From NCBI RefSeq assembly GCF_036507355.1, contig NZ_AP027877.1: a stretch of 64,000 nt of DNA; one strand, 5' to 3'. The position numbers were made by a program. Shown piece after piece: positions 3,001 through 6,000 of the stretch. Each line of letters opens with the position of its first letter. Position 1 is the stretch's first letter. This stretch comes from Escherichia coli. Lineage in GTDB: Bacteria > Pseudomonadota > Gammaproteobacteria > Enterobacterales > Enterobacteriaceae.

Positions 3001-6000
3001 CGCTGCCTATCTGGCGGATGAAATCGCCAAACTGGGGCCGTATGAGTTCATCTGTACGGGTCGCCCGGACGAAGGCATCCCGGCGGTTTGCTTCAAACTG
3101 AAAGATGGTGAAGATCCGGGATACACCCTGTACGACCTCTCTGAACGTCTGCGTCTGCGCGGCTGGCAGGTTCCGGCCTTCACTCTCGGCGGTGAAGCCA
3201 CCGACATCGTGGTGATGCGCATTATGTGTCGTCGCGGCTTCGAAATGGACTTTGCTGAACTGTTGCTGGAAGACTACAAAGCCTCCCTGAAATATCTCAG
3301 CGATCACCCGAAACTGCAGGGTATTGCCCAGCAGAACAGCTTTAAACACACCTGATAACATAACGTTGTAAAAACCGAATGCCCAGCCTTTAAAAAAACA
3401 GCTGGGCATTCGGTTGCTTATTAATCGCAATAATATATTGGCTGTCTATTCATCGTGTTGATAAGATATATGTTATATGAATGTTTATTAAATGTAGCGA
3501 TTACCTTTAATGTCACGAAAGGGGATTATTTGCTTACTATTAATTTCCCTGCGTTCTTAAACACGTATTTGTATTATAAATCCAGTCATCCTGCCCGTAG
3601 AACATCACACATTATCATCCTGTTCTCCCGCTTCGTTTAAATTTATTTATCAATCAATTTGACTTAAGAGGGCGGCGTGCTACATTAATAAACAGTAATA
3701 TGTTTATGTAATATTAAGTCAACTATGCAATCACTACATGGGAAGGTAATGACTCCAACTTATTGATAGTGTTTTATGTTCAGATAATGCCCGATGACTT
3801 TGTCATGCAGCTCCACCGATTTTGAGAACGACAGCGACTTCCGTCCCAGCCGTGCCAGGTGCTGCCTCAGATTCAGGTTATGCCGCTCAATTCGCTGCGT
3901 ATATCGCTTGCTGATTACGTGCAGCTTTCCCTTCAGGCGGGATTCATACAGCGGCCAGCCATCCGTCATCCATATCACCACGTCAAAGGGTGACAGCAGG
4001 CTCATAAGACGCCCCAGCGTCGCCATCGTGCGTTCACCGAATACGTGCGCAACAACCGTCTTCCGGAGCCTGTCATACGCGTAAAACAGCCAGCGCTGGC
4101 GCGATTTAGCCCCGACATAGCCCCACTGTTCGTCCATTTCCGCGCAGACGATGACGTCACTGCCCGGCTGTATGCGCGAGGTTACCGACTGCGGCCTGAG
4201 TTTTTTAAGTGACGTAAAATCGTGTTGAGGCCAATGCCCATAATGCGGGCTGTTGCCCGGCATCCAACGCCATTCATGGCCATATCAATGATTTTCTGGT
4301 GCGTACCGGGTTGAGAAGCGGTGTAAGTGAACTGCAGTTGCCATGTTTTACGGCAGTGAGAGCAGAGATAGCGCTGATGTCCGGCGGTGCTTTTGCCGTT
4401 ACGCACCACCCCGTCAGTAGCTGAACAGGAGGGACAGCTGATAGAAACAGAAGCCACTGGAGCACCTCAAAAACACCATCATACACTAAATCAGTAAGTT
4501 GGCAGCATCACCACATGGGAATTGTCTAATTGCGTATGCAAGACATAAATATATTCTCACCATGGTTAATGGTGAATATCGCTATTTTAATGGCGGTGAC
4601 CTGGTTTTTGCGGATGCAAGCCAAATTCGAGTAGATAAGTGTGTTGAAAATTTTGTATTCGTGTCAAGGGACACGCTTTCATTATTTCTCCCGATGCTCA
4701 AGGAGGAGGCATTAAATCTTCATGCACATAAAAAAGTTTCTTCATTACTCGTTCATCACTGTAGCAGAGATATTCCTGTTTTTCAGGAAGTTGCGCAACT
4801 ATCGCAGAATAAGAATCTTCGCTATGCAGAAATGCTACGTAAAAGAGCATTAATCTTTGCGTTGTTATCTGTTTTTCTTGAGGATGAGCACTTTATACCG
4901 CTGCTTCTGAACGTTTTACAACCGAACATGCGAACACGAGTTTGTACGGTTATCAATAATAATATCGCCCATGAGTGGACACTAGCCCGAATCGCCAGCG
5001 AGCTGTTGATGAGTCCAAGTCTGTTAAAGAAAAAATTGCGCGAAGAAGAGACATCATATTCACAGTTGCTTACTGAGTGTAGAATGCAACGTGCTTTGCA
5101 ACTTATTGTTATACATGGTTTTTCAATTAAGCGAGTTGCAGTATCCTGTGGATATCACAGCGTGTCGTATTTCATTTACGTCTTTCGAAATTATTATGGG
5201 ATGACGCCCACAGAGTATCAGGAGCGATCGGCGCAGAGATTGTCGAACCGTGACTCGGCGGCAAGTATTGTTGCGCAAGGGAATTTTTACGGCACTGACT
5301 GTTCTGCGGAAGGAATAAGATTATAGAATTTTACTCAGACATAAAAAAAACCCGGCATAGGGGACCGGGAAGAGGATAGTCTGCCGTCTCCAGACTAATA
5401 AACCGTTATAACACTCCCTGTTGGCACGGGAAACTTTGTGCTCTCAGTAAGTTAAATATAACTTTTACTGGAAATAAGATCAGCCATTTTTTTATAAACA
5501 TAAGCTATACGCTGTGCGAAAATATATTCGTGCTGCATTTACTTATTATCAATTAACTGTTATGCAACACTACTTTGTGGATAAATTTTGGTCCTACCAA
5601 ATCTGGCAGTTTTTGCGCTAAGAAACAGTCTGGCATCATTTCATTAGTATACTGAAATTGAAATAATCGCAGTATGAAATATAAGGGATAATCATGACTC
5701 ATGTCTGCTCGGTGATCCTCATTCGTCGTTCATTCGATATTTATCATGAACAGCAAAAAATATCGTTGCACAACGAGAGTATCCTGTTACTGGATAAAAA
5801 TTTGGCAGACGATTTTGCGTTTTGTTCACCGGATACGCGACGGCTGGATATCGATGAGCTGACAGTTTGCCATTACTTACAAAATATTCGTCAGCTACCA
5901 CGAAATTTAGGGTTACATAGCAAAGACCGTTTGTTAATTAACCAGTCACCCCCCATGCCGCTGGTGACGGCGATTTTTGATAGTTTCAATGACTCCGGGG

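Follow-up and report, generated by a model that had tools for sequence, protein, structure and literature searches.

In classical IS1 polarity, as seen in gal and lac, untranslated transcripts that enter the element are terminated by Rho. IS1 is also a source of hybrid promoters, with afaA in ST131 (PMC8764528) and acrEF (as cited there) as examples. The -35 box at the end of IS1 activates a neighbouring gene only if it is correctly spaced from a -10 box, and expression is otherwise lowered or unchanged (PMC8764528). Loss of Gad regulators, gadX included, has been selected repeatedly in the laboratory (10.1101/531178, PMC8483737, 10.1101/120006), and loss of gadX can pay where the stress regulon is costly (10.1101/531178; PMC8483737; 10.1101/120006; PMC13162491). 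GadE remains active in the absence of GadX or GadW (PMC4918353), and partial acid resistance persists in gadX mutants (PMC3937726). In the literature searched, no description of natural gadX::IS1 alleles was found.

Here we analyse an IS1 insertion in gadX of Escherichia coli, which encodes an AraC/XylS-type activator with an auxiliary role in the Gad acid-resistance system, located in a window of 64 kb (the whole stretch of DNA under study). The locus resembles classical IS1 polarity in that a 768-bp IS1 with a 9-bp duplication occupies an AT-rich target, the coding sequence is cut from its promoter and start, and a long untranslated stretch follows a premature stop. It differs in that the frame is kept, the end of the element offers an in-frame TTG and annotation reports an intact gene; polarity at this locus is predicted from sequence. 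As in the hybrid promoters of afaA and acrEF, the same outward -35 box faces the downstream gene, but there is no -10 box at a functional distance and the TTG start sits within the -35 box. The same module is affected as in experimental-evolution lines that lost Gad regulators or the slp-gadX island, often through IS-mediated events (10.1101/531178; PMC8483737; 10.1101/120006; PMC13162491); those lines are K-12 under defined laboratory selection, whereas only gadX is affected here.

IS1 in codon 7 of gadX

The coordinates of the features are collected in Table 1. The element was placed after nt 20 of gadX, that is, after six full codons and two bases, and hits codon 7. Its two terminal repeats show 0 mismatches to GGTRATGMYKCCAACTTAYTGAT and are the only IS1 end matches in the window (n=2; 0 expected from shuffles). 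The 9-bp duplication is perfect, abuts both ends and does not occur elsewhere in the window. The initial annotation had reported just such a structure, a 768-bp IS1 flanked by a 9-bp duplication at codon 7, and the element ends at 3745 and 4512 proved exact. The copy has the length (~768 bp), the ~23-bp repeats, the A6C -1 frameshift motif (AAAAAAC, found at the reverse complement of 4200-4209) and the 8-9-bp duplication by which IS1 is recognised. Both insA and the insB' frame match NF033558, the NCBIfam IS1 transposase model, and DNA identity to annotated IS1A copies is 98.4-99.7%.

The insertion adds 777 nt and keeps the frame of gadX, which resumes beyond the element, as had been noticed before; the 275-aa ORF opened by the TTG in the IS1 end runs to 5326. 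In silico excision of IS1 and one copy of the duplication restores a 274-aa GadX, with Pfam HTH_18 and HTH_AraC matches over residues 152-243. Identity and synteny are those of gadX (GC 0.41), and the protein clusters at 90% with others named GadX, but the coding sequence is interrupted and disconnected from the native promoter and start codon. The encoded protein is identical to a widespread allele (79 collection blocks) from Met21 onward. The identical gadX body, the intact IS1 ORFs and the perfect duplication together point to a recent insertion, and the perfect duplication, full-length element and exact ends argue for a real transposition, with misassembly not the source.

Table 1. Features of the gadX::IS1 locus and its neighbours (positions in the window).
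Feature	Position	Strand	Description
gadA	1955..3355	plus	glutamate decarboxylase, intact, upstream of gadX; ORF MDQKLL...; strong Shine-Dalgarno
Candidate native gadX promoter	3659..3686	plus	sigma-70-like TTGACT-16-TACATT with TG; consensus match only
Native gadX start	3725	plus	ATG
Residual ORF from native ATG	3725..3766	plus	13 codons; stop 20 nt inside IS1
Target-site duplication, left copy	3736-3744		ACATGGGAA; gadX nt 12-20
IS1	3745-4512	minus	complete IS1A-like copy of 768 bp; insA and insB' antisense to gadX
Right-type inverted repeat (IRR)	3745-3767		GGTAATGACTCCAACTTATTGAT; terminal-repeat match
insB' frame	3760-4263	minus	open; NF033558, 145.6 bits
insA	4182-4457	minus	91 aa, open ORF; NF033558 and zinc-binding domain matches
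insA promoter	4505..4478	minus	in IRL; CTGCCA-16-TATGAT
Left-type inverted repeat (IRL)	4490-4512		reverse complement GGTGATGCTGCCAACTTACTGAT; terminal-repeat match
Outward -35 box	4499-4504	plus	in IRL; TTGGCA
Chimeric ORF	4499-5326	plus	275 aa, MAASPHGNCL...; TTG and 4 IS1-end codons, then GadX from His5
Target-site duplication, right copy	4513-4521		ACATGGGAA
Alternative in-frame start (native Met21)	4562..5326	plus	ATG, 254 aa; start codon in 7-bp hairpin stem
gadY small RNA	5338-5451	minus	full length; Rfam RF00122, 150 bits, E = 5e-33
gadW	5694-6422	plus	intact ORF, 242 aa; good Shine-Dalgarno

Translation from the native ATG ends at the stop codon 3764-3766. The hexamers at 3659..3686 are the sole plus-strand sigma-70-like site reaching 9/12 in a consensus scan of 3300-5750; they probably represent the native gadX promoter, now parted from the gene body. 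The insertion had been said to separate both promoter and Shine-Dalgarno sequence from gadX. This holds for the promoter and fails for the Shine-Dalgarno sequence, as the native start has none that is recognisable (duplex energy -0.9 kcal/mol).

The neighbouring genes are undisturbed. gadA is collinear and gap-free relative to the annotated gadA of NZ_OZ197100.1. The integrity of gadY and gadW was confirmed, gadY covering model positions 1-114 of 114 (gathering score 45) antisense to the 3' end of gadX. The gene order gadA - gadX - gadY (antisense) - gadW - mdtFE - gadE is kept, and the remainder of the acid island is gap-free against an annotated intact reference.

IS1 insertions in gadX of other genomes

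The exact allele is known from one NCBI genome, in which the protein WP_338388000.1, named GadX, is identical to the chimeric ORF. No contiguous identical match to the junction was found in 5,426 complete E. coli genomes (megablast, both 300-nt junctions), and no other genome searched shares the combination of a duplication of nt 12-20 with an IS1A-like copy. A degenerate hotspot-junction pattern was absent from JGI metagenome contigs, where assembly from short reads is interrupted at IS copies, and the exact junction was absent from the GTDB species-representative genomes, among which E. coli has a single representative; these negatives for the junction outside this genome carry little weight. 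A second junction, chuA::IS600, was used as a possible marker of the lineage and was likewise absent from all complete genomes.

IS1 in gadX as such was found in 76 genomes and represents at least 18 independent events, in the orientation seen here (29 genomes) or the opposite one (47 genomes). The events span nt -319 to +663, and several are accompanied by adjacent deletions. Carriers include the CX21 series, DFK.1, FDAARGOS_1297, the 2016C-3878 clonal group, E138, HCP6S3_I2, HNSQ2209, EH08-18-36, Z503, HN257, ET5, the ST536/ECONIH4/0H series, EF7-18-51 and O104:H4 FDAARGOS_772. In gadW, which is equally AT-rich, only 4 genomes have IS1, an excess in gadX of roughly 5-fold by events and 17-fold by genomes. 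Control counts were made with clean 300-nt queries; a combined both-orientation query was dropped because pairs of IS1 lying head to head confounded it. In natural E. coli, IS1 thus often inserts into gadX, above all into its first 200 nt, and the mutation described here is of an ordinary type that recurs. The other natural alleles likewise have IS1 inside gadX or a short way upstream of it, in most cases flanked by duplications of 8-9 bp; several of them, unlike this one, also show IS1-mediated deletion of neighbouring genes. The presence of IS1 alleles in both orientations and all along gadX fits loss of function and not selected expression.

Three events lie within 5 bp of the site, among them CX21, oriented as here with its junction at gadX nt 17, and DFK.1, oriented the other way with a duplication of gadX nt 15-23. 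In DFK.1 an in-frame TTG chimera, called by PGAP, is also present at the opposite end of IS1; PGAP takes the longest homologous ORF. The chimeric frame at the present locus, which pipelines label intact GadX, probably exists by chance, the odds of a TTG in frame being one in three. PGAP annotates the 254-aa Met21 form in CX21 and FDAARGOS_1297. This form was considered as a tracer of IS-truncated loci and rejected, as the contigs to which it led carry intact gadA-gadX for which the caller had chosen Met21.

Expression of the gadX body

We consider it likely that a recent, genuine transposition of IS1 into codon 7 of gadX has inactivated or strongly reduced GadX. The sequence shows the native promoter and start left with only a 13-codon ORF that ends in IS1, and the body of the gene 777 nt away. 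Transcripts entering IS1 would be antisense to insAB, would go untranslated for 732 nt and would probably be ended by Rho. Rho termination is suggested by C-over-G composition, the C/G ratio being 1.2-1.56 over about 350 nt (3784-4130, plus strand). A transcript that survived would meet a TTG that lacks a Shine-Dalgarno sequence, and the outward -35 box would find no workable -10 partner.

In a consensus scan no plus-strand sigma-70-like site of at least 9/12 was found inside IS1 or at the junction. From TTGGCA, spacers of 15-19 bp lead to -10 hexamers of 3/6 at best, and the sole 5/6 hexamer, TCTAAT (4525-4530), demands a spacer of 20 bp, compared with the usual 16-18 bp. The outward -35 box of a hybrid promoter is therefore present, but a -10 box at about 16-18 bp is missing. 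Moreover, TTG4499 forms the first three bases of the -35 box, which means that hybrid-promoter transcripts begin downstream and do not include it. A hybrid promoter driving the TTG ORF is ruled out by this geometry. Of the two routes to GadX proposed in the initial annotation, a hybrid promoter and transcription out of IS1, the first must be abandoned on these grounds. The second has less support than was claimed: read-through from the gadX promoter or gadA would need to traverse 732 nt of untranslated RNA ahead of a TTG without Shine-Dalgarno sequence (duplex energy -0.2 kcal/mol, compared with -5.3 for gadW and -8.7 for gadA).

The alternative that a chimeric GadX, with MAASP in place of MQSL, is expressed by read-through or from an IRR promoter, so that the circuit is rewired and partly uncoupled from RpoS/H-NS, appears unlikely. 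The near-full-length ORF predicted from TTG4499-4501 is indeed there: the TTG comes from the IS1 end, is in frame with the gadX body and is followed by no stop ahead of it. The swapped residues fall outside the conserved regions, as similarity to GadW starts near residue 50 and the HTH covers 152-243, and low-level initiation at TTG4499 would probably give a functional protein. The missing Shine-Dalgarno sequence is not decisive, since the native gadX start also functions without one, and RNA around the TTG is weakly structured (-8.8 kcal/mol). A plus-strand ORF of 36 codons in IS1 stops at TAA 4495-4497, one base ahead of TTG4499 (TAA-G-TTG), a spacing that permits termination-reinitiation in principle. 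Weak promoter activity directed inward is a property of the IRR end of IS1 and would here point toward gadX; weak promoter-like hexamers reading inward (ACTCCA-17-TATGTT) were found in that end. Against such expression stand the length of untranslated antisense RNA with its C-rich, G-poor stretch, convergent transcription from the insA promoter, a weak start codon that lacks a Shine-Dalgarno sequence, the absence of a 9/12 plus-strand site anywhere in IS1, and natural gadX::IS1 alleles that show no preference of orientation or position. The gadX body shows no decay, which would fit expression but is explained equally well if the insertion is very recent and confined to one genome. We infer that the chimeric ORF is not an expression device. 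The peptide MAASPHGNCLIAYAR of the chimeric ORF could tell the expression models apart.

Still less probable is a truncated GadX of 254 aa, made from Met21 without the first 20 residues via a junction or internal promoter. The outward TTGGCA in the IS1 end (PMC8764528) and the TCTAAT hexamer would speak for it, yet their spacer lies outside the usual range, and ATG4562, itself held in the 7-bp stem of a local fold of -20.4 kcal/mol, has no Shine-Dalgarno sequence (+0.7 kcal/mol). Gene callers often choose Met21, even on intact loci, and PGAP does so in CX21 and FDAARGOS_1297, but such start choices are no evidence of expression. Equally improbable is the proposal of an IS1 micro-hotspot in the first ~25 nt of gadX, where the three neighbouring events fall, at which right-frame insertions in either orientation are expressed as TTG alleles from IS1-derived transcripts and serve as RpoS/H-NS-free switches instead of knockouts, the IS1 excess over gadW reflecting selection on this module in nature; the target in question, ATCAC-N6-GG(G/T)AAT, resembles abutted IS1 termini. 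An assembly artefact, in which a repeat copy of IS1 was collapsed or wrongly placed in gadX, is scarcely credible. E. coli genomes have a median of 10 places that match IS1, and multicopy elements are well known to give rise to misassembly; however, the termini are exact, excision yields an intact GadX, the source is a contig of 4.64 Mb, and independent genomes carry like insertions a few bp away. The perfect target duplication, which misassembly would not create, rules the artefact out.

Predicted consequences for GadX and acid resistance

Judged from the arrangement of the locus, the gadX allele is most likely null or strongly hypomorphic, with GadE and GadW buffering its effect. In this preferred reading of a recent inactivating transposition, the RpoS-dependent boost that GadX gives to gadA, gadBC and gadE would be lost, above all in stationary phase. 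Most acid resistance would persist via GadE and GadW, given that all other genes of the island are intact. The suggestion in the initial annotation that the acid-resistance circuit is rewired was overstated; it is simpler to expect that an auxiliary activator is lost and that GadE and GadW buffer the loss (PMC4918353). On the whole, the earlier structural reading of the locus was right and its functional reading weaker than stated, so that it is partly supported. Glutamate-dependent acid resistance is predicted to be modestly weakened in the strain, depending on conditions and mainly in the stationary-phase RpoS-GadX branch, with the GadE core spared.

Homology-guided annotation (PGAP) masks IS disruptions, both this chimera and that of DFK.1 being called intact GadX. 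gadX appears in resistance gene catalogues, and screens that record whether regulators linked to acid resistance or AMR are present or absent will score these strains as wild type. The contrast between gadX and gadW offers a natural system in which IS1 target preference may be parted from selection acting against a stress regulator that is costly.

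IS1 insertion in gadX and the surrounding island

From the sequence and the ORF table, the gene order is gadA (1955-3355), the gadX start codon (3725), an insertion, the body of gadX (to 5326), and gadW (5694-6422). The gadX::IS1 allele is a real, cleanly bounded insertion, in line with the initial annotation of a complete IS1 early in the gene. The element has exact ends, and the 9-mer ACATGGGAA, present in exactly two copies in the window, adjoins both of them (3736-3744 and 4513-4521). The IS1 terminal consensus has just two matches in the 64-kb window and none in 100 shuffles. 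The A6C frameshift motif is found, and identity to copies annotated as IS1A elsewhere is 98.4-99.7%. In silico removal of IS1 and one copy of the duplication restores a 274-aa GadX. An assembly artefact, the refuting case named by the initial annotation itself, is strongly argued against by the perfect target duplication. The proposed chimeric frame is likewise present in the ORF table: an in-frame TTG at 4499 opens a 275-aa ORF (MAASPHGNCL...).

gadY and gadW are intact, as first described. Window 4507-22122 is collinear and gap-free with an annotated E. coli chromosome (NZ_OZ197100.1) carrying intact gadX, gadW, mdtF, mdtE, gadE, hdeD, hdeA, hdeB, yhiD, and chu/shu genes, and the remaining acid island is therefore undamaged. 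Window 28270-64000 is collinear with the same chromosome at 97.8% identity. A second mobile element, a 1264-bp IS600 (IS3 family; ∼22123-23386) with a 3-bp duplication, CTA, splits the heme receptor gene chuA/shuA (fragments 21003-22130 and 23249-24253).

A protein identical to the 275-aa chimera is deposited as WP_338388000.1, ‘acid resistance transcriptional activator GadX’, on a single 4.64-Mb contig. Whether the insertion is lineage-fixed had been raised; the junction was found in none of the 5,426 complete RefSeq E. coli genomes, nor in JGI metagenome contigs or GTDB species-representative genomes. As far as these sets show, the allele is private to one sequenced genome. The chuA::IS600 junction was also absent from the 5,426 genomes; close relatives of the window's lineage are therefore lacking from that set.

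Features of the window (window positions) and natural gadX::IS1 alleles (gadX nucleotides)
Feature or genome	Position	Strand or orientation	Remarks
IS1	3745-4512	transposase genes minus	complete; exactly 768 bp
IS1 right-type repeat	3745-3767		GGTAATGACTCCAACTTATTGAT
IS1 left-type repeat	4490-4512		IS1 terminal consensus match
insA	4182-4457	minus	open; matches NCBIfam IS1 transposase model
insB' frame	3760-4263	minus	open; matches NCBIfam IS1 transposase model
gadY	5338-5451	minus	full-length Rfam match, 150 bits
EF7-18-51	duplication -319/-311		upstream of gadX
NT1F10 pig series	duplication -209/-201		upstream of gadX
TOE3	duplication -80/-73		upstream of gadX
the window	duplication 12-20
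CX21	junction 17 onward		ccp'-gadA deleted
DFK.1	duplication 15-23	opposite
FDAARGOS_1297	duplication 51-59
2016C-3878 group	duplication 95-102		clonal, ∼34 genomes
E138	duplication 116-124
HCP6S3_I2	duplication 147-154
HNSQ2209	duplication 154-162
EH08-18-36	duplication 191-199
Z503	duplication 446-454
O104:H4 FDAARGOS_772	gadX up to 494		joined to hdeB'; gadW-mdtFE-gadE-hdeD-hdeA deleted
ET5	gadX up to 501		without duplication; neighbouring sequence replaced
HN257	duplication 498-506
ST536 / ECONIH4 / 0H series	duplication 638-645
EF7-18-51, second copy	duplication 655-663

Expression of the chimeric ORF

The native gadX ATG now encodes a 13-residue peptide ending at 3764-3766. The 732 nt of plus-strand RNA between that stop and TTG4499 are untranslated and antisense to the transposase genes, and the C/G ratio of 1.2-1.56 across 3784-4130 (plus strand) is a composition favouring Rho loading. 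IS1 is classically polar in either orientation. TTG4499 lacks a Shine-Dalgarno sequence (duplex -0.2 kcal/mol, versus -5.3 for gadW and -8.7 for gadA), but the native gadX start is likewise poor (-0.9 kcal/mol), so this lack is not decisive.

A hybrid promoter at the IS1 end had been suggested as a source of the chimera. The IS1 terminal repeat contains an outward -35 box that forms hybrid promoters with a rightly spaced -10, while a wrong distance leaves expression lower or unchanged (PMC8764528). The window's outward box, TTGGCA, occupies 4499-4504 and opens with the very TTG proposed as start codon, which no transcript from a hybrid promoter can therefore include. At spacers of 15-19 bp, matches to TATAAT reach at most 3/6, and the sole 5/6 hexamer, TCTAAT (4525-4530), requires a 20-bp spacer. 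Consensus scanning placed a probable native gadX promoter at 3659-3686 and the insA promoter at 4505..4478 (minus strand), and detected no promoter-like plus-strand site within IS1 or at the junction. For a transcript begun 3' of the IS1 end, the only usable start is native Met21 (ATG 4562), which has no Shine-Dalgarno sequence and lies within a 7-bp stem (local fold -20.4 kcal/mol). Several features speak for some expression. The reading frame is kept across the insertion, and the replaced residues lie outside conserved regions (GadX-GadW similarity starts at about residue 50; HTH domains 152-243). A 36-codon GTG-initiated plus-strand ORF within IS1 (4387-4497), antisense to transposase, ends in a TAA (4495-4497) one base 5' of TTG4499, and this TAA-G-TTG geometry would, were the ORF translated, allow termination-reinitiation. 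Judged from sequence, the window's allele is probably a knockout or strong hypomorph.

Within window 4556-4598 (plus strand), the stem enclosing ATG 4562 (CACCAUGguuaaUGGUGa) is followed by a second hairpin of 9 bp. Both are part of the native gadX mRNA and were not brought by IS1. Met21 is often chosen as the gadX start by gene callers, intact loci included.

Recurrent IS1 insertion at gadX

At least 76 of the 5,426 complete genomes carry IS1 inside gadX or a short way upstream of it: adjoining the 5' flank in the window's orientation in at least 29, and, with a mirror-image query, in the opposite orientation in at least 47. Representative loci, mapped onto window 3355-5700, resolve into at least 18 independent events, each distinguished by its duplication and IS1 subtype; 9 of 15 intragenic events fall within the first 200 nt. 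As a control, the same 300-nt query design was applied to the gadW flank (GC 0.41, as for gadX; same silenced island). Among the matches listed, it returned IS1 in 0 genomes for one orientation and in at least 4 for the opposite one, representing 4-5 events at most. Genome counts are lower bounds for IS1-rich genomes, equally across all searches. gadX thus holds 18 of 22 events (two-sided binomial p = 0.004 under equal rates), a test whose event counts rest on representative loci and which does not tell target preference from selection. In natural E. coli, IS1 preferentially hits gadX, above all its 5' end.

Three independent insertions lie within 5 bp at the window's site, and their IS1 subtypes share 100%, 96%, and 93% identity with the copy in the window. 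Their junctions are at gadX nt 12 (the window, 3730-3750 / 4507-4530), 17 (CX21 series; CX21 locus L003, 2634-2669), and 15 (DFK.1/DFS.1; DFK.1 locus L023, 2130-2150 and 2897-2934). The target, ATCACTACATGG(G/T)AATTG, is similar to both IS1 termini, ATCACC and GGTAATG, which explains the 15-nt near-repeat ATCAC(T/C)ACATGGGAA across IS1. Target-to-end homology is reported at IS1 hot spots; as the basis of this micro-hotspot it is only a lead.

The occurrence of both orientations, the scatter along gadX, and several adjacent deletions fit loss of function, tolerated or favoured. The pattern gives no hint that a geometry competent for expression was selected. In the O104:H4 reference-material strain (NZ_CP041002.1; also RM8376, NZ_CP064387.1), IS1 at nt 494 abuts truncated hdeB, implying IS1-mediated loss of the gadX 3' end, gadY, gadW, mdtF, mdtE, gadE, hdeD, and hdeA. 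Such a loss takes in the greater part of the acid fitness island and, with it, the central activator GadE. The chicken isolate EF7-18-51 (NZ_CP063487.1) has three IS1 within 4.5 kb of the gadX locus (gadA-gadX spacer, gadX nt 655-663, and gadW), an extreme example of the GadX/GadW module being eroded by IS1.

Expected phenotype and annotation

GadX is an RpoS-dependent activator of gadA/gadBC and gadE. GadE is still active after deletion of GadX or GadW (PMC4918353), gadX mutants keep partial acid resistance (PMC3937726), and laboratory evolution repeatedly selects loss of Gad regulators including gadX (10.1101/531178; PMC8483737; 10.1101/120006). Acid resistance is therefore expected to be mildly reduced, in a condition-dependent manner. 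The rewiring of the GadX/GadW/GadY circuit considered probable by the initial annotation is not required. GadY acts on the gadX 3' UTR (PMC3937726), so a collapse of gadX transcription would deprive it of most of its substrate.

Standard annotation (PGAP) lists IS-disrupted gadX as intact. It calls TTG-start chimeras built on codons of the IS1 end, WP_338388000.1 for the window's allele and WP_260654494.1 in DFK.1 (L023 2900-3724). In DFK.1 the in-frame TTG (TTGGAG...) comes from the other end of IS1, and the product is annotated as full-length GadX. A 254-aa form starting at Met21 is called in CX21 (L003 2695-3459) and FDAARGOS_1297 (locus L028, 2960-3724). Such chimeric ORFs thus arise repeatedly, as a by-product of chance frame agreement and of start choice guided by homology, and gene-presence screens would rate such gadX-disrupted strains as wild type.
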